From: Candidatus Methylomirabilis limnetica
Lineage (GTDB): Bacteria; Methylomirabilota; Methylomirabilia; Methylomirabilales; Methylomirabilaceae
DNA length: 32,000 bases
Reading direction: 5' to 3'
Assembly: GCF_003044035.1 (NCBI RefSeq)
Contig: NZ_NVQC01000028.1
Span: 64,168-96,167, forward strand
A model generated the notes under the pieces. The model saw nothing but the letters and a program-made list of their open reading frames with translations, did not search any database and had not been told where the DNA came from. Shown one piece after another: positions 5,937-32,000 of this stretch. Every line of letters starts with the position of its first letter. The stretch's first letter is position 1. Position numbers and translations under genes: made by a program.

Positions 5937-6056
5937 TTGAACATGCCCCAAGATGCTCAGCGTAAGAGGCGCACCAGGGGTCGTCTGGACGGTCTCCACA
6001 ATGTCAGCGTAGCGGATAGCAACATAACCCTGCTTGACGCGAGGAGGTATCGTGCC

Positions 6057-6527
6057 ATGTTGCCAAAATATCAGAAACTGCTGGTGACTACAGATCTCTC
6101 ACCCCTCGGAAACACCGCAGTCCTCCATGCCTATGCTATCCTGGCAGAGCGTGGCGGCACTGTCATCCTTTGGTGTGCGGTTGACGTGTCAGGGATTCCG
6201 GACCCGCTCTACGCTCAGCCCACGCCTGGGGAGACGCTCGCTGAGGAGCGGACGGAGATCCGGGAAAAGCTGTTCTCCTCACTGGAAGCACTTGTGCCTG
6301 AGGAGGTTCGTGCAGAGGGAAAGGTGACCACGAAGATACGGGTAGTGGAGGTCTCCGGACCGATCCATGATACGATATGCCAAGAGGCTGCAGCTCAGGA
6401 GGTGGACCTCATCGTGATGGCATCCCATGGCTATTCCGGGATGAAGCACCTGCTCCTGGGCTCAGTGGCAGAGCATGTGGTGCGGTCAGCCGATCGCCCC
6501 GTTCTCATTATCCGCGGCCGAGAGTGA
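6057..6527 (+). CDS. Universal stress protein (UspA family)
   Basis: KLLVTTDLSPLG ... DLIVMASHGYSGMKHLLLGSVAEHVVRSADRPVLIIR. ATG at 6057 is preceded by GAGGAGG. The ORF-track start at 5937 is a TTG and gives an implausible extension. Confidence 0.85.
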   Translation: MLPKYQKLLVTTDLSPLGNTAVLHAYAILAERGGTVILWCAVDVSGIPDPLYAQPTPGETLAEERTEIREKLFSSLEALVPEEVRAEGKVTTKIRVVEVSGPIHDTICQEAAAQEVDLIVMASHGYSGMKHLLLGSVAEHVVRSADRPVLIIRGRE

Positions 6528-6554
6528 GGACTCTCACCGCTCACTTCGCTCGTC

Positions 6555-26914: not shown

Positions 26915-27112
26915 CGCGACAAGCTTCCTCCAAAGATCCTTCACCTCTTACACTTTTACTATGCTTTGGGCAAGAATTCCCCACTGATGATACACGAAAG
27001 TTTACCTGTTCACAACCAAATCTGCAATCCCAAGGTAACCATTCAGTTACGGGTGGAAAATCTCCCCCCGGCTTAACACATGCCGGGGCAGGCCCGCATG
27101 GGCAGGCTCTAA

Positions 27113-27249
27113 CCCTCTTTTCCAAAGAGGGGGACTAACCGTTTCCCCCTTTGAAAAAGGGGGCGGGGGTTTATCTTGAATGGAGGACACCATGATGCGC
27201 CGGAGGGCGGAGGGAGAAACCCCCTTCGATCCCCCTTTGCCAAAGGGGG
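27113..27249. repeat. Cluster of three G/C hairpin repeat units (27113-27133, 27145-27175, 27216-27249)
   Basis: CCCTCTTT-TCC-AAAGAGGG; CCCCCTTT-GAA-AAAGGGGG+CGGGGGTTTATC; inverted copy GAAACCCCCTTCGAT+CCCCCTTTG-C-CAAAGGGGG. Same family as 2801-2836. Confidence 0.65.
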
Positions 27250-27283
27250 AGATCGGAAGAACCAATTTTCTCTTGTGACTTAC

Positions 27284-27510
27284 TCGATAATTTGGCCAAT
27301 TTTTAATCGTAATGTGGCCACGACGGAATCGTAATCTGTTGATTTTAAATCGCACGCATTTCTCCACCTCGGCGCTGTTTACAGCATATGTTGGCCGAAA
27401 GTGCATTTTATAACCATAACGTTGCCAAAAGTGCAGTGTTGCGTATTCCGATCAAAGTTGCCACCCATTCCGATTGAACTCGGCCAGGCGTTTCGATACT
27501 CGTGTAGGTT
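27284..27510 (+). repeat. Degenerate direct-repeat array with ~22-bp period (TCGAT/TCGTA-N5-6-TTGGCCA-like units) plus two GTTG(G)CC(G/A)AAAGTGCA copies
   Basis: Unit anchors at 27284, 27307, 27329, 27350 and at 27447, 27469, 27492. 15-mers at 27390-27405 and 27421-27435. Confidence 0.5.
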
Positions 27511-27951
27511 AGCGTGGACATAATGTCCTGAAGGTTCAGGAAACTCCAAGACGAGTTGGGCAAAGGGTAGCGAACCGCAAACTCTTCGGGCCGTATTGTC
27601 GCAAACGTCCTTCGGAAATGCCGCGCTTGCGCACCTAGCTCACCACTACTAATCCACCCTCCGGGGAGTCCACATTACGGGGGTGGAATCTTTTAAAGAG
27701 TTTAGCGGCAGGGAGAAATGCGGGAAGGTCTTGGTGTGCGAGTCGTTTATGGTAGCCTGCGAACGACTCCGGCGATAGCGGCTGGGGTGACGGATCGTGT
27801 GGGGAGTTTAGAGGATTTTGTGGATGGGAAGTCGAATGGGTAGAACTGCTCAAAGACCGCCCTGTTTTTCGAAGGGATTTAGGTGCAGTAAGGAAACCAG
27901 GGGCCATCACTTTCCTACTTTGCTGGCCAGAGATCAGAGATCGACTCTTGG

Positions 27952-28149
27952 CTAGACCGTGAGGGCCTTGTATAGAAAGCGACGGATGTAGTTCCTGCTG
28001 TCCTTCGGCAGCGTTTGCCAGTAGGGTTTGATCTCAAGGACCAACAGGTCAGTTTCCTCATCCTCAAAACGCCGGGACTCTTGCGACATTGAATCCTGGG
28101 ATTCTTGTCTCTCCGCTGCGACTTTCTCCTCTCTAGCCTTTGCTTCCAT
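27952..28149 (-). CDS. Small protein, 65 aa, acidic N-terminal half and basic C-terminal helix
   Basis: ATG preceded by AGGAGGGG (4-nt spacer) embedded in the end of the upstream gene. 17-nt overlap suggests translational coupling. Confidence 0.5.
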   Translation of the reverse strand: MEAKAREEKVAAERQESQDSMSQESRRFEDEETDLLVLEIKPYWQTLPKDSRNYIRRFLYKALTV

Positions 28150-29113
28150 GCACCCCTCCTGTTTCTAATGAAACTTCCTTTGCGTTCTGGGTCGCAGGTA
28201 GAGCCTTACTTAATAGCAGATGAAGTCTATAAGTAAACCTTATAAGGGCAAAAAAAGGTTCTAATGTAGTTCTTACCGCTTCCTTAAATCGAGCCTCATC
28301 TCTGAAGTAATCAGCCACATCGCAGTCCAATGATAGCACACCTACGAATTCTTGAGACTTGTCGAGTTTATCGGTAAACATCACAGGAAAACAAGCTATC
28401 GATTTTATGCGGTGGTGTCGCTGGCTCTTTGATGTAAGGCCATGTAGGTCATCCTTGCGAACATCTGGCACAACAACGATTGCCTTTTCTGCCCAACATG
28501 TTCCCGCGCAACCCTCATTCAATATAAAGCCTTCTCTGTTCGAGGAGGGGGAGTTGTCTGAATTTACATATGCGACCACCTGAAGCTTCTGCCCAATCGG
28601 CATGAGGAAACCGACAGTAAGATGAATATTCAGATCCCGGTTGCCCTTAGCAACCACCCAGAAAACTTCCTTCAGGATCACCTCTACAATTTCTGCGTAA
28701 TTGAACCTTGCGTGTTCAACTATTTCCATCAGAGTTGGCTGGCCGGCAAAAAAACGTTCCAGACCGTACATGGTGTTGTTTGTCAGCCGCCTCACTGATA
28801 CAAGGACAGCCCTTAGATCCATCAGGACATCGTTAACAAGCTTGAGGTGCGTATTGATCTGGTCCAGAGTGCTCTGATTGGCTGTTGCCTGCATCTTGCG
28901 CCGCTTGAAGTGGCTGAACGGAAATATGACAAAAAAGTACAAAATAATGCAAGTCCAGAATGCTACTGCCTCATTCGGGCTCCTTGCTGAATCAATCTGC
29001 GAGCGCCATATTCCTAGACCGAGGGGTATGGCAACAAGAACGAACTGGAAAAAGAAACCATACAGTTGATTTTCTGGGAATTTCTGCTCTGGTGTCCTTA
29101 TTTCAATATGCAT
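28133..29113 (-). CDS. Membrane-anchored (2 TM) GAF-domain protein without an output domain
   Basis: TM helices LYGFFFQFVLVAIPLGLGIW and AVAFWTCIILYFFVIFPF. GAF-like pattern GCAGTCWAEKAIVVVPDVRKDD ... SIACFPVM ... FVGVLSLD. Low-GC codon usage. Confidence 0.7.
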   Translation of the reverse strand: MHIEIRTPEQKFPENQLYGFFFQFVLVAIPLGLGIWRSQIDSARSPNEAVAFWTCIILYFFVIFPFSHFKRRKMQATANQSTLDQINTHLKLVNDVLMDLRAVLVSVRRLTNNTMYGLERFFAGQPTLMEIVEHARFNYAEIVEVILKEVFWVVAKGNRDLNIHLTVGFLMPIGQKLQVVAYVNSDNSPSSNREGFILNEGCAGTCWAEKAIVVVPDVRKDDLHGLTSKSQRHHRIKSIACFPVMFTDKLDKSQEFVGVLSLDCDVADYFRDEARFKEAVRTTLEPFFALIRFTYRLHLLLSKALPATQNAKEVSLETGGVHGSKG

Positions 29114-29668
29114 TAGCTGTCAGCCAAGCGCCGTACTGATTGAGTCGGATGGTTAGGAGTCTTCCTGGGCTGTGATTGGCGACTGCGCCGCGCCACGGGA
29201 CGCACAGGGGGATCTAAGCTGTAGCTGTTCCACGATCCTCCACAAATGGAAGAGTCTTGATATCCGATGACATTGCGCTCTCCTCGCCGACCGCGATCGT
29301 TAGGACTTTTTGGTATCATTTTCTCCGGCAATATTTCGATCAGTCTGGTGGCAACTCTTTCAGTCGCTTCGCAACTTCATTGGTTTTTGTGCTTCGTAGA
29401 GCTTTTGACGCTAGCATAACATCACTGGGACTAGAAGCAAAATACATACCAATCAAACCTGTATGCCCTTCAAATTTGGACAGCACCCCCTCACAATAGA
29501 CTGCATTAACTAGTTGTCACGTTAGCTTTCCGAATGCGGCGGGTAGTTTCATGCTTTAAGCATCGGCACTAGGGCTTGATCAGTCAAGTGCTGTTCCGCC
29601 GCGGTATTGGGTCAGTTTGAAAATGGACAGGGCTTGCCAGCAGATGTCGGCAGCCCTGCATTTAGGGT

Positions 29669-29916
29669 ATGCCTAAGCGCACAAGCAAGAAGCCACCCTC
29701 GGATATTAACCTGCTCGCCGTCTCAGTCGTCCAAGTGGCGACTGGAGAAAAACCCGCCAGTGAGAGCATCTCGCAAAAGAATCCTGCCGCTGTTCTACTT
29801 GGTAGGCTCGGTGGTCTCAAAGGCGGAAAAGCTAGGGCAGAAAAACTGACACCTTAGAAAGAAGCAAGATTGCTAGAAAGGCTGCTCACGTCAGATGGGG
29901 AAAGGGAGAAAGGTAA
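29669..29916 (+). pseudogene. Small basic protein gene (LGRLGGLKGGKARAEKLTP / ...RSKIARKAAHVRWG) interrupted by a frameshift near 29850
   Basis: Frame 1 stops at 29855-29857. The motif continues in the -1 frame (29851-29916: TLERSKIARKAAHVRWGKGER*). Confidence 0.5.
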
Positions 29917-29921
29917 GTATT

Positions 29922-30506
29922 CTATCTGTGCCTAGCTTTTTTCCTCTTCTTGTCTCGATTCCTTTGTTTCCGCTTTTCATCTTGACTCAGAGGCACCGCA
30001 TGGATTCCATGCTTTCTGTTGTGTTCATTAATTTCCTCAACAAAATCGATCGGTTCATTTGATGGCGTCCTGAACGTCCAATGCGTGTGCCCGTTATGAT
30101 TTGTAATCGCAAAGTCACCAAACGCAATAATGTCCATGCCTAAGAGGACGTCCGCCCCAGCGATCCCTCCATCGGAAACACGAACACCAACAATCCAGAC
30201 GTTGTTGGGCAAGTAAATGTTGACCAGGTATGTATTGGCTTCATATTCATGACTCTGATCACCAGCGCCAACACTGTGAACATTTTCTTTACCACTTGGT
30301 TGAAGATTTAGTTCTTGGGCAATCTTTGGGCTAATGACAGTAGCTGTGGCTCCACAATCCCAAACGGCAATGTATGGCCGTTTAATTGGCTCAGGTTGGC
30401 CCGTTGCTGGGTCATACGCTTCACTGATATGAACCTGATTCAGTAGTTCCCTGACAATTCCGTTGGATTTGGTGGTAAAGGCTCTGAGGCCAGGTAGGAA
30501 TTTCAC
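29922..30506 (-). CDS. Retropepsin-like (clan AA) aspartic protease with poly-basic C-terminal tail
   Basis: VWDCGATATVIS (D-x-G-A active-site loop with Cys in place of Thr/Ser), VLLGMDII motif, tail KRKQRNRDKKRKKARHR. GTG start with no in-frame ATG upstream of the catalytic motif. Confidence 0.7.
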   Translation of the reverse strand: MKFLPGLRAFTTKSNGIVRELLNQVHISEAYDPATGQPEPIKRPYIAVWDCGATATVISPKIAQELNLQPSGKENVHSVGAGDQSHEYEANTYLVNIYLPNNVWIVGVRVSDGGIAGADVLLGMDIIAFGDFAITNHNGHTHWTFRTPSNEPIDFVEEINEHNRKHGIHAVPLSQDEKRKQRNRDKKRKKARHR

Positions 30507-30541
30507 TGCGGAACTCAGTAACTGCGGATGAAATTAGACGG

Positions 30542-30778
30542 TTAGCCGAACGCCACACGCGAATGGTAGCGTTGGATGACGCGGTCTTTGCTAGGCACGC
30601 AATGCTGAAGAAGGAACTTCCCCAAGCCGTATTTTTTCTTCATCTCCTGGTAGGCTGTTAGTTCTGAATCAAAAACCCCTACAACCTCTTCATCTACAAT
30701 GGCAATAAATTTGCCATTGTAGCGCTCTATAAGGTCGCTTTCGTGGGTCTTAAAATAGTGATATTCCCGGTCAAGCAT
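30542..30778 (-). CDS. Small 78-aa protein co-transcribed with the protease (YNGKFIAIVDEEVVGV motif)
   Basis: ATG with GAGGGGA SD. 35-nt gap to the protease gene. Fold-like motif Y.GK.IAI....V. Confidence 0.65.
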   Translation of the reverse strand: MLDREYHYFKTHESDLIERYNGKFIAIVDEEVVGVFDSELTAYQEMKKKYGLGKFLLQHCVPSKDRVIQRYHSRVAFG

Positions 30779-30802
30779 GTTCCCCTCGCATTCATTTCCC
30801 GT

Positions 30803-30861
30803 TGAGGTTTTTCTATAAACCTCATATCGGTATATTAGTCACAGCTTCTTTCTTCGGTCAA
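30803..30861 (-). promoter_or_regulatory. Promoter TTGACC-N18-TAATAT (30832-30861) followed by 8-bp inverted repeat TGAGGTTT-N6-AAACCTCA (30803-30824)
   Basis: Hexamers and palindrome read directly. The palindrome sits at the predicted transcription start of the 78-aa/protease operon. Confidence 0.35.
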
Positions 30862-31071
30862 GTGATTATTCTCTTGACATGCTTGACCGCTCAAGTCGGT
30901 CCACTGTCCGTATGACCGGAGTAGCCAAGGGCGCGGTCCTAAAGCTACTGGCTAACCTTGGGGCGGTATGTAGTGAATATCAGCGACCAACCCTCCTTCT
31001 ATCACTCTCTCCATGCCGAAGTCAAGCCTGGCAGACGGTTTGGGTGTAAGACAAATTTATGGGTAAGCTTC

Positions 31072-31860
31072 TCACCCCGTTGCCCGATTTCCCCAAAACT
31101 CCTCCCACCGGCCACTGATCTGACAGCAACGTAGGGCGATAATTGCGTTGGCCCCTCTGACAGTCCATCTCATTCCCGACTGTTTGAGCCGTTGTCCCAC
31201 GATCGTTTTACAGCCGGCTTCAATAACTCCGGATCCTACAAACAAGCCCTGCTTTATCCATTCAGCATAGAGCATGCGATCTTGATTCGTCTCAAAATAC
31301 CCCACTGTTTTTTGAACTTCCCCCCAAACCGACGGGTTCTGCGGCTGCAGTCGTTTGATGGCAGCAATGACTTTTTTTACATCGCCTTCTTTCAGTTCAT
31401 CCTTTTGCTTTTTAAACCATCGTGTCACTTCTTCTCCCGTCGATCCATACACTAGCTTTCCAATAGTCCACAGGTGTTCCAAGGCATGAAACAGATCCAC
31501 GACGTGAATCGCGTTCGGAAAATGCTCGTCGCCGATCCCGCGAATCCATACAGCGCCATCCCCCAAAAGAATAACCTTCTGAGCCCGAGTCACACCTCGA
31601 CGCACAGCCTCGGCATAAATCCTTTTGCCAAATTCCTCTGCCGTCTCAATGGCTCCTACGTAAGTGGTGGAATCCTCGTCACGGATGGGGAACCCTTTCT
31701 GATCGAGTTGGGTCTGGGTAAAGACGCATCCCAATTTGGCTTCCCGAGTCTTTGCTATGGGTGTTTGCTTGCCCTTGCGCCCTTCGGTCTCGGATGGAAC
31801 AACCGGAACGCCAGTCCCGTCGATGGCGATGTAGAGCTTGGGAACAGGTGAAAAAAGAGG
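31072..31860 (-). mobile_element. 5'-truncated DDE transposase (ISKra4-like by recollection), C-terminal ~265 aa only
   Basis: IAIDGTGVPVV, AKLGCVFTQ, VILLGDGAVWI and VVDLFHALEHL contain the D, D, E positions. The N-terminal half of such transposases is missing. The boundary is approximate. Confidence 0.6.
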
Positions 31861-32000
31861 GATCACCTTGCCATCTGTGGCGATGCTTCCCTCCTCCACG
31901 GTCACCAGTTCGCAGCCCTTCGCACCCTGCTCTCTAATATGCCGGCCCTGAGGGTTGCCGGGATACACCACCCACGGATCCTTAGACACGATTTCCCTTG
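31861..32000 (-). pseudogene. Fragment of an SbcD/YhaO-like metallophosphoesterase (DNA repair exonuclease), fused in frame to the transposase fragment
   Basis: VVYPGNPQGRHIREQGAKGCELVTVEEG resembles the conserved segment of SbcD-like exonucleases. The frame is open to the window end. Assignment is by recollection only. Confidence 0.35.

Follow-up and report, generated by a model that had tools for sequence, protein, structure and literature searches.

The window analyzed here, a 32,000-nucleotide stretch of DNA from Candidatus Methylomirabilis limnetica, carries on its minus strand a two-gene cassette in which a small gene of the DUF5678 family precedes a gene for a retropepsin-like aspartic protease (Table 1). 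The coordinates and sizes of the genes, the spacer between them, and the Shine-Dalgarno sequence of the small gene are as described in an earlier, sequence-only reading of this DNA, and the operon architecture that it proposed, with two co-oriented genes and the small one first, is borne out. The GAGG core lies 5 nt from the ATG of the small gene, and the Shine-Dalgarno region is kept in an alignment of related loci. The spacer contains a direct repeat (two copies of TCCGCAGT). When scanned for Rfam families and tRNAs, the window gave no matches.

Table 1. Features of the gene pair and its flanks (positions are those of the window)
Feature	Position	Strand	Description
Small gene	30542..30778	-	78 aa, ATG start; Pfam DUF5678; ORF read from sequence
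Protease gene	29922..30506	-	194 aa, GTG start; retropepsin-like aspartic protease
Spacer between small and protease genes	30507..30541	-	35 nt
Shine-Dalgarno-like GAGGGGA, 5' of small gene	30781..30787	-	Read from sequence
Active-site loop D50-C51-G52-A53	30348..30359	-	Read from sequence; D-T-G-A in relatives
Lys/Arg-rich tail, residues 178-194, KRKQRNRDKKRKKARHR	29925..29975	-	Predicted helical
Promoter-like TTGACC-N18-TAATAT	30832..30861	-	Sequence scan and related-locus alignment
Perfect inverted repeat TGAGGTTT-N6-AAACCTCA	30803..30824		Just downstream of -10
Conserved upstream block	30831..30900	-	Kept among close relatives; DNA further upstream unalignable
Right arm of perfect 13-bp inverted repeat, CGGTCAAGCATGT	30768..30780		Covers start codon of small gene
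Left arm of this 13-bp inverted repeat, ACATGCTTGACCG	30877..30889		Covers start codon of divergent IS1-like remnant
IS1-like transposase remnant	30879..31049	+	Divergent from gene pair; BLASTP E 1e-17
Convergent small basic gene	29669..29918	+	~80 aa in relatives; here frameshifted after '...AEKLT'

IS elements or their remnants flank the low-GC stretch in which the pair lies; the GC content there is 47 to 49%, versus ~58% for most of the remaining window (range, 0.49 to 0.66). At the position of the IS1-like remnant, the related locus L089 carries a full-length 286-aa IS1-like copy, for which a faint DDE_Tnp_IS1 match is on record. The convergent ~80-aa gene accompanies the pair only in its closest relatives (L001, L085, and L087 to L090). 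Other neighbors in the window are housekeeping genes and IS remnants, and homologs elsewhere mostly sit beside unrelated ordinary genes; the defense-island location that had been suggested for this locus was not borne out.

Sequence and predicted structure of the two proteins

The protease (WP_161954155.1, recorded at NCBI as a "retroviral-like aspartic protease family protein") exceeds the cutoffs of both PF13975 (32.9 bits; cutoff, 28.2) and PF13650 (27.2 bits; cutoff, 24.3), confirming the retropepsin-like domain that had been called by eye. From the N terminus onward, it has a beta extension, one retropepsin lobe (approximately residues 43 to 147), two helices, and a basic tail. Foldseek searches with the AF2 model (pLDDT, 90.6) placed Rickettsia APRc (5c9f), feline immunodeficiency virus (FIV) protease (3fiv), and DDI1 (3s8i) among the top matches (E values of 6e-6 to 3e-4), with a probability of 1.0 for APRc, FIV protease, DDI1, RSV protease, and HTLV-1 protease; model and matches agree on the single lobe. 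By sequence, a PDB search returned marginal DDI1 matches alone (E = 0.05). With one lobe per chain, the enzyme would be expected to work as a homodimer, and one relative (P0264) has two protease domains in tandem, imitating a dimer.

The fold and the hydrophobic-Gly-x-Asp helix motif are those of the retropepsin-like clan AA, which includes retroviral proteases, the DDI1 RVP domain, and APRc; of the Asp-Thr/Ser-Gly-Ala loop of this clan, the window protease has Asp50, Gly52, and Ala53. The window protease is nonetheless only 9 to 18% identical to solved retropepsin structures, and it differs from retropepsins in its extra N-terminal beta extension with a conserved FTT motif, in its added C-terminal helices and basic or SEC-C tail, in having Cys for Thr/Ser in the loop, and in the partner gene, DUF5678, which is obligatory in its family. 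It is cytoplasmic and lacks an APRc-type membrane anchor, and unlike DDI1 it has no UBL or UBA domains.

The DCGA active site noted in the sequence-only reading is present as read (W49-D50-C51-G52-A53, with the Cys51 codon TGT at 30356-30354), but it is not a trait of the family: 185 of 187 unique relatives have WDTGA, and C51 is unique against these 187 and ~90 aligned metagenome homologs, making it a private Thr-to-Cys change in the window lineage. It is not a sequencing error, because 7 independent contigs yield the identical protein and because C51, within an intact ORF, recurs in all three further allelic variants that were read from the 90% cluster. Across relatives, D50, G52, G130, and D131 are invariant, and T51, A53, G123, M124, and D125 are invariant or nearly so. 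The LLGMD motif is found at residues 121 to 125, as claimed, and apart from position 51 the window protease keeps all other conserved residues.

One explanation of this substitution is that the window copy is an attenuated or decaying relic, in which the exchange of Thr51 for Cys has lowered or abolished activity and the cassette is drifting in an IS-ridden patch. Its uniqueness fits such a history, as do the frameshifted adjacent 80-aa gene, the remnant state of the upstream IS1-like gene, and a dN/dS of 0.44 for the protease versus 0.17 for the small gene in the comparison with L087, the shortest branch; together, Cys51, this elevated ratio, and the frameshifted neighbor could signify decay in the window. 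The substitution counts behind the ratio are small, however (19 nonsynonymous and 12 synonymous in the protease), the reading frame is unbroken and persists in several alleles, the remaining conserved residues are retained, and the corresponding T26C variant of HIV-1 protease is reportedly nearly as active as the wild type. Comparisons of the window with L089 and L084 gave dN/dS values of 0.08 to 0.22 for both genes. A relic is rather unlikely in our judgment; with its altered active site and its IS-littered, low-GC surroundings, the window copy may still be attenuated.

The extremely basic C terminus of the window protease is also present as first described, and AF2 predicts a helix there (residues 175 to 193), but it is only one of two interchangeable endings. 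Among the 187 unique relatives, 87 end in a SEC-C motif, 59 have a basic tail, and 41 have other tails. The SEC-C ending, found in ~47% of relatives instead of the basic tail, is a CxC...C[CH] zinc motif resembling the SecA metal-binding domain (consensus, CxCGSGKKYKxC[CH]; PF02810 is on record for several homologs). The motif also occurs in YecA and YchJ. The metal-binding domain at the C terminus of SecA binds SecB and ribosomes (bioRxiv 10.1101/613315; PMC6620043). The window protease itself lacks the motif and has the Lys/Arg-rich helix in its place.

The 78-aa protein matches DUF5678 (Pfam PF18929) above the curated cutoff (E = 2.2e-7; 31 bits; cutoff, 23.2), bearing out the assignment of the sequence-only reading, and all 37 of its aligned homologs match DUF5678 as well. 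The motif on which that assignment rested, Y20-x-G-K-x-I-A-I-x4-V32, can be read in the translation. AF2 (pLDDT, 81) predicts a folded alpha-alpha-beta-beta-alpha-beta core followed by a C-terminal tail, with pLDDT values below 50 for residues 68 to 78; the Y71-H-S-R-V-x-F segment of this tail is predicted to be disordered, yet it is highly conserved in the homolog alignment. A Foldseek search of the PDB gave no match (best E = 1), and a fold search of viral proteins gave only other DUF5678 proteins. Neither the PDB fold search nor the Pfam scan revealed a helix-turn-helix (HTH) or other DNA-binding fold or family. We also considered and dropped a Phd/YefM-like antitoxin identity, given the lack of a PDB fold match and of a PhdYeFM match in a permissive Pfam scan. 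NCBIfam and PHROGs searches returned no match for either protein.

Within the small gene, a perfect palindrome of 12 bp (30694-30722) was considered as an RNA or DNA element and rejected: relatives have at least 2 mismatches in it, without compensation. Its symmetry comes from the coding sequence, the codons for YNGK being reverse complementary to those for (I)AIV.

Linkage and distribution of the gene pair

The counts that follow cover the 80 best-scoring loci of each scan, of genomes and of viral contigs, and so describe the closer relatives. The small gene is directly upstream of the protease gene on the same strand in 79 of 80 genome loci from many phyla (in the 80th, it is 1.5 kb upstream) and in 80 of 80 viral loci. 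The linkage of the two genes in other genomes, whose failure the sequence-only reading had named as a refutation of its proposal, was thus found in both sets. For loci fetched through the small gene, a protease gene lies downstream in 72 of the 77 that could be assessed. The intergenic gap has a family median of 3.5 nt; -1 and -4 overlaps are common, an arrangement of the kind that translational coupling would require.

Unpaired genes are distributed unevenly: five small genes were found unaccompanied by a protease, but no unaccompanied protease was (Fisher p = 0.003). This asymmetry fits a toxin-antidote pair and, just as well, a protease that simply has no use in the absence of its substrate. 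An indirect hint that the two proteins interact comes from one relative (P0082), in which DUF5678, protease, and SEC-C are naturally fused into one chain. Another is a mirror-tree correlation between the pairwise distances of the two proteins (r = 0.54), a value reached in 0 of 500 permutations; mutual information between the proteins, computed over 187 pairs, gave no interpretable contact signal. As judged from these comparisons, the pair is inherited together across bacterial phyla and phage genomes.

The protease subfamily comprises 1,387 clusters at 50% identity (E <= 1e-30) and is found in at least 566 species-representative genomes; hosts include Proteobacteria, Chloroflexota, Bacteroidota, Nitrospirota, CPR bacteria, Planctomycetota, and Bacilli, among others. 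Relatives occur on 220 IMG/VR contigs and in Leptospira LE1-like phages. On viral contigs, the neighbors include integrases, lysis genes, Ant, and repressors, which are typical of prophage accessory spots. No copy of the module was found in 72,556 plasmids searched.

No particular gene travels with the pair. The 750 flanking ORFs fall into 687 clusters, none of which is present in more than 4 of 80 loci, and no single Pfam family is shared by more than 3 of the 146 first neighbors or 3 of the 115 second neighbors; a third conserved gene was therefore rejected, the convergent ~80-aa gene being confined to the closest relatives. Second neighbors of homologs are mostly housekeeping genes, and defense matches among the 146 first neighbors are scattered singles (an informal count). 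On this distribution, the window locus is best described as a copy of a two-gene operon that is widespread, autonomous, and horizontally mobile. The resemblance to toxin-antitoxin or defense modules that had been proposed holds for its mobility, prophage carriage, variable contexts, and spread over many phyla, but not for its neighbors, among which, on this informal count, defense genes are not enriched.

A gene pair could also spread in this manner through plain usefulness, as a protease of the Ddi1-like or quality-control kind whose small partner serves as its adaptor or chaperone. The closest solved folds do include the retroviral-protease-like domains of DDI1, many chromosomal neighbors are housekeeping genes, and the SEC-C motif is familiar from secretion and chaperone machinery (10.1101/613315). 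Such an ordinary, nonselfish function sits poorly, however, with a patchy distribution that lacks conserved synteny, with the frequency of the pair on phage contigs, with the low-GC, IS-flanked position of the window copy, and with the existence of pseudogenized copies (L023 and L072) and orphan small genes. We regard it as improbable.

Promoter region and repeats upstream of the small gene

The predicted promoter is present upstream of the small gene, and its -35 and -10 hexamers are invariant in 7 related loci, although promoter-like sites are not significant in a scan alone (3 in 1.6 kb versus 1.5 ± 1.2 in shuffled sequences).

The sequence-only reading placed an operator-like palindrome at the start site, and one rival explanation makes the 78-aa protein a DNA-binding autorepressor acting on it. 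The palindrome is indeed perfect and just past the -10 hexamer, and an 8-bp perfect arm appeared in 0 of 30 shuffles of the 120-nt upstream region of the window (~4% of shuffles when pooled over all loci). It is specific to the window, however. In the close relatives L084 to L090, whose proteins are ~74 to 91% identical, the palindrome is not kept while the -35 and -10 hexamers and the upstream repeat block are invariant, and across the family the best upstream palindrome arm barely exceeds that in shuffles (mean, 5.81 versus 5.34 nt) and has no fixed position. Since the small protein has no recognizable DNA-binding fold, its autoregulation is still conjecture, and repression through this palindrome in particular strikes us as very improbable.

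A better operator candidate is the repeat block within the conserved upstream region, in which nested repeats (CGGTCAAG ... GTCAAG ... CTTGACCG) overlap the -35 hexamer. The CTTGACCG octamer occurs 3 times in the 32-kb window, always within 30768-30889. This block could instead belong to the neighboring IS. The arms of the 13-bp inverted repeat cover the start codons of both the small gene and the divergent IS1-like remnant, so that both ORFs begin ATGCTTGACCG (M-L-D-R).

Possible functions of the pair

In its organization, the cassette resembles type II toxin-antitoxin modules: the small gene comes first, the genes abut or overlap, linkage is strict, genomic contexts vary, mobile elements carry the pair, and there are orphan "antitoxin-like" genes and no orphan "toxin-like" ones. 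It differs from them in that the small protein has no RHH, HTH, AbrB, or Phd fold and in the absence of the pair from the plasmids searched. We know of no toxin family that is an aspartic protease.

The interpretation that we favor, with a probability of about 0.5, is that the module is a mobile operon in which a protease effector is held by its DUF5678 partner, and that it acts in the manner of a toxin-antitoxin system, for addiction or abortive infection. The effector would be the homodimeric protease, and the DUF5678 protein would bind it directly and restrain it. The likeliest contact would be the disordered, conserved tail (..Y-H-S-R-V-x-F), which would occupy the substrate cleft or its vicinity as a pseudosubstrate or cleavable plug. 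If the small protein were lost or displaced, as might happen when the element is lost, under stress, or upon phage infection, the protease would cleave cellular or phage proteins. Its Lys/Arg tail or SEC-C zinc motif probably directs it to an acidic binding partner, for example, SecB or the ribosome. The full version of this scheme, a toxin-antidote or abortive-infection class in which the zinc motif or polybasic helix brings a retropepsin effector to ribosomes, nascent chains, or SecB while the DUF5678 tail plugs the cleft, is more speculative, and we think it unlikely to hold in every part. If true, it would provide the first aspartic-protease toxin, with a "retroviral" protease serving as a conditional weapon of bacteria and phages.

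The same two proteins could instead form a protease-substrate switch. Here the small protein would be a regulator or proprotein whose tail is clipped on a signal, controlling the carrier element or the prophage life cycle. Regulatory pairs of a protease and a small partner are an established theme (PMC2701414), and the comparison with ImmA/ImmR, COG2856-Xre, and CapP/CapH is apt in that these too are protease and small-partner genes on mobile elements or prophages, with a partner that is plausibly cleaved. Their proteases are, however, Zn metallopeptidases (HEXXH for ImmA) and their partners HTH repressors, whereas the window pair has an aspartic protease and a partner with no HTH or other DNA-binding fold. 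Viral copies do adjoin integrases, antirepressors, and repressors, as in lysogeny-control regions; most chromosomal copies lie beside ordinary unrelated genes with no conserved target operon. In the P0082 fusion, the conserved tail of the small protein directly precedes the protease, in the manner of a polyprotein cleavage site, and the orphan asymmetry would be expected of a switch as well, but the basic and SEC-C tails of the protease would have no obvious role in it. On balance, we consider a switch an unlikely account of the pair.

Bacterial retropepsin-like proteases are, to our knowledge, numerous and almost entirely uncharacterized, and we know of no cytoplasmic one with an assigned role. 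The near-constant pairing of DUF5678 with such a protease in a self-contained mobile cassette allows two annotations of "unknown function" to be studied as a single, testable system. If, as in the interpretation that we favor, the protease is a conditionally released toxin, it would add a new enzymatic class to toxin-antitoxin and abortive-infection biology, place the origin of retroviral and DDI1-type proteases in a prokaryotic context, and lend a function outside SecA to the widespread SEC-C motif.

Literature searches on DUF5678 and on retropepsins in toxin-antitoxin or defense contexts gave nothing relevant, and no publication on the gene pair was found, in keeping with the earlier remark that modules of this retropepsin type are uncharacterized. 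For the candidate defense system PDC-M08, likewise, no literature was found. The small protein matched no model in PADLOC-DB 2.0. The sole match there was that of PDC-M08B to the protease, which is not significant (E = 0.0077; 14 bits); this component B aligns with the retropepsin core (protease residues 48 to 134 versus positions 29 to 117 of the 128-position profile), so a retropepsin-like protein appears to be part of a candidate defense system already.

Linkage of the two genes

At the window locus in Candidatus Methylomirabilis limnetica, the two-gene arrangement described in the sequence-only reading is present on the minus strand together with its promoter-like hexamers and palindrome, and every listed motif of both proteins can be read from the translation (see the table). 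A GAGGGGA sequence lies 5' of the small-gene ATG, with 5 nt between its GAGG core and the start codon, and a 35-nt spacer separates the small gene from the protease gene. Both proteins are already annotated in databases and are not undiscovered sequences; NCBI names them "retroviral-like aspartic protease family protein" (WP_161954155.1) and "DUF5678 domain-containing protein" (WP_107563577.1). RefSeq starts the protease at GTG; GenBank PTL35253.1 begins 12 nt earlier, at a CTG, for a product of 198 aa. Two direct copies of TCCGCAGT, with starts 16 nt apart, run across the spacer and protease start (30505-30528).

Features of the module, its surroundings, and a phage-borne relative
Feature	Position	Strand	Remarks
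Small gene, DUF5678	30542..30778	minus	ORF, 78 aa, ATG start
Protease gene	29922..30506	minus	ORF, 194 aa, GTG start
Promoter-like TTGACC-N18-TAATAT	30861..30832	minus	
Perfect palindrome TGAGGTTT-N6-AAACCTCA	30803-30824		Start site
GAF-domain protein	28133-29113	minus	N-terminal hydrophobic segments; immediate neighbor in low-GC stretch
Small basic gene	29669-29918	plus	Frameshifted, convergent; ~80 aa in relatives
IS1-like transposase remnant	30879-31049	plus	Divergent from small gene
UPF0236 (PF06782) ORF	31072-31989	minus	Transposase-like; runs to window end
Gene pair in Leptospira phage vB_LbrZ_5399-LE1	L091 3001-3504 (KF114879.1 72894-73397)		Protease ORF ~180 aa

The sequence-only reading staked its proposal on linkage of the two genes in other genomes, and they are linked. 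Scanning a single genome for each species, we found at least 566 protease relatives; in the best 80 of these loci, a DUF5678 gene lies on the same strand in every case and directly upstream in 79. The small gene is likewise directly upstream in all of the best 80 viral loci from 220 IMG/VR contigs with a relative. When loci were fetched via the small gene, the protease was directly downstream in 72 of 77 assessable metagenome loci; the remaining five (L116, L127, L146, L152, and L163) carry orphan small genes, with a visible protease stub in one. No protease without a small gene occurred among the loci scanned, versus these five orphans (Fisher P = 0.003). Among the best-scoring loci scanned, the DUF5678 partner gene is obligatory. 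The median intergenic gap is 3.5 nt, with frequent -1 and -4 overlaps, and pairwise distances among the small proteins correlate with those among their proteases (r = 0.54, reached by 0/500 permutations). One metagenome protein (P0082, 266 aa) is a natural fusion of DUF5678, protease, and SEC-C in a single chain. This fusion, together with gene coupling and the distance correlation, leads us to infer that the two proteins bind each other. A second metagenome protein (P0264, 336 aa) carries two tandem protease domains and a single SEC-C motif, imitating the presumed protease dimer.

Decay is also seen at two loci from other genomes: in L023 the protease is split over three frames (5941-6545), and in L072 (857-1186) two distinct parts of the small-gene ORF hit the profile, a possible internal duplication or insertion.

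The protease and its small partner

The protease matches Pfam PF13975 and PF13650 above their cutoffs and belongs to a subfamily of 1,387 clusters at 50% identity (E ≤ 1e-30). Neither module protein matches NCBIfam or PHROGs, and the sole PADLOC match, between the protease core and component B of the candidate defense system PDC-M08 (PDC-M08B), is nonsignificant (E = 0.0077). The AlphaFold2 model, built from an 89-sequence alignment, is confident (pLDDT 90.6) and shows a single retropepsin lobe preceded by an N-terminal beta extension and followed by two C-terminal helices and a basic tail; Foldseek groups it with Rickettsia APRc, the FIV, EIAV, RSV, and HTLV-1 proteases, and DDI1 domains (E down to 6e-6).

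W49, D50, G52, G130, D131, and P148 are invariant in the alignments, and T51, A53, and G123-M124-D125 (within LLGMD, residues 121 to 125) are invariant or nearly so. The variant DCGA site is indeed present in the window copy (W-D-C-G-A, residues 49 to 53; Cys codon TGT at 30356-30354) but is confined to its lineage: WDTGA stands in 185 of 187 unique relatives, YDTGA in one, and Thr in all aligned metagenome homologs outside the window protein's 90% cluster. The Cys is genuine: 7 contigs have calls for the identical protein, and the residue recurs in the three further alleles read. The T26C variant of HIV-1 protease is reportedly nearly fully active (Strisovsky and colleagues, 2000). Across the family, the protease looks catalytically competent. 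Both genes appear to be under purifying selection on longer branches in close-relative comparisons (dN/dS 0.08 to 0.22). On the shortest branch (window versus L087, a close relative), dN/dS is 0.44 for the protease and 0.17 for the small gene, which, with small counts, hints at relaxed constraint on the window protease; that this copy is attenuated or decaying is possible, if rather doubtful.

The basic tail (KRKQRNRDKKRKKARHR) is present as described, but it is one of two interchangeable endings. Among 187 relatives, the C terminus is a SEC-C zinc motif (CxCGSGKKYKxC[CH], Pfam PF02810) in 87, a Lys/Arg-rich tail in 59, and of another type in 41. SecB and ribosomes are binding partners of the metal-binding domain of SecA (bioRxiv 10.1101/613315; PMC6620043), and either ending may steer the protease to an acidic partner, e.g., the ribosome or SecB.

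The small protein carries the Y-x-GK-x-IAI-x4-V motif and exceeds the curated cutoff of Pfam DUF5678. Its predicted fold is alpha-alpha-beta-beta-alpha-beta (pLDDT 81); a PDB search returned no structural neighbor, and in a viral structure library it resembles other DUF5678 proteins only. Residues 68 to 78 are predicted to be disordered, although the Y-H-S-R-V-x-F tail is among the best-conserved parts of the protein. The small protein would restrain the protease, most plausibly with this tail as a pseudosubstrate, and the module would be of the addiction or abortive-infection type, with the protease as its effector. We give this toxin-antidote-like reading a probability of about one-half; a regulatory switch made of a protease and its substrate, as in ImmA/ImmR or CapP/CapH, seems unlikely. 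The toxin-antidote-like pair would share its two-gene build with known toxin-antitoxin- and defense-like modules, whereas its effector class would be new. In the literature searched, we found no published account of the pair or of PDC-M08, and nothing relevant on DUF5678 or on retropepsins in toxin-antitoxin, defense, abortive-infection, or prophage settings. A 2009 comparative survey of type II toxin-antitoxin systems mentions Zn proteases as the only proteases (PMC2701414), and a 2009 survey of clan AA describes its prokaryotic single-domain members as little known. Obligate pairing, mobility, phage carriage, and alternative SEC-C or basic tails appear not to have been described before.

Mobility and genomic surroundings

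The two genes form an autonomous, mobile operon. We analyzed neighbors by mechanical ORF calls and top-25 family lists: 750 flanking ORFs fall into 687 clusters, the largest found in only 4 loci, and no Pfam family exceeds 3/146 first or 3/115 second neighbors. Many neighbors are housekeeping genes, and PADLOC matches are scattered singletons. An ordinary cellular function of the pair is improbable. Neighbors on viral contigs include integrases, endolysins or amidases, Ant antirepressors, and repressors, positions typical for accessory genes of temperate phages. Leptospira LE1-like phages carry the pair with the protease ORF unannotated; in the vB_LbrZ_5399-LE1 record, annotation there is limited to the 80-aa gene upstream and a 49-aa glimmer call. 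No copy occurred among 72,556 plasmids searched.

The window pair borders a block of housekeeping genes (RmlA, RmlB, a MutS-family protein with MutS domains III and V, PurU, and a GltD-like oxidoreductase). GC content is 47 to 49% in 28001-31000 and 54 to 66% in most of the remaining window. As a description of this location, "island" is fair, given low GC and IS remnants, but "defense island" is not, because the immediate neighbors are the GAF protein, a frameshifted gene, the transposase remnant, and UPF0236. The frameshifted gene reads "MPKRTSKKPPSDINLLA...LGRLGGLKGGKARAEKLTPxERSKIARKAA..RW", broken in the window after AEKLT; L085, L087-L090, and L001 hold intact copies at the equivalent position. 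The gene has no Pfam family and a weak match to PHROG 2384 (function unknown). A G/C-clamped hairpin repeat (TCCCCCTTTGnnAAAGGGGG and variants) occurs in three copies (27112-27250) within a ~1.2-kb stretch without long ORFs (26950-28130) that separates the housekeeping block from the low-GC patch.

Upstream DNA

The operator-like start-site palindrome is perfect in the window but is not conserved in L084-L090, the closest relatives. Invariant there are both hexamers (-35 and -10) and an upstream block, 30831-30900, beyond which the DNA cannot be aligned. Nested repeats (CGGTCAAG ... GTCAAG ... CTTGACCG) in this block overlap the -35. The CTTGACCG octamer occurs three times in the 32-kb window, each time within 30768-30889. 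The small gene and the divergent IS1-like remnant both begin with ATGCTTGACCG (MLDR), and their start codons are covered by the two arms (30768-30780 and 30877-30889) of a perfect 13-bp inverted repeat. As an operator candidate, the block is preferable to the start-site palindrome, though it could instead be part of the IS. L089 has a full-length 286-aa transposase at the position of the remnant, and the module may travel with the IS1-like element. Family-wide, upstream palindromes are barely above shuffles (best arm averaging 5.81 versus 5.34 nt).

Inside the small gene, a perfect 12-bp palindrome (CTACAATGGCAA-N5-TTGCCATTGTAG; 30694-30722) crosses the YNGKFIAIV codons; because relatives mismatch without compensation, it seems to be incidental to the conserved peptide motif.
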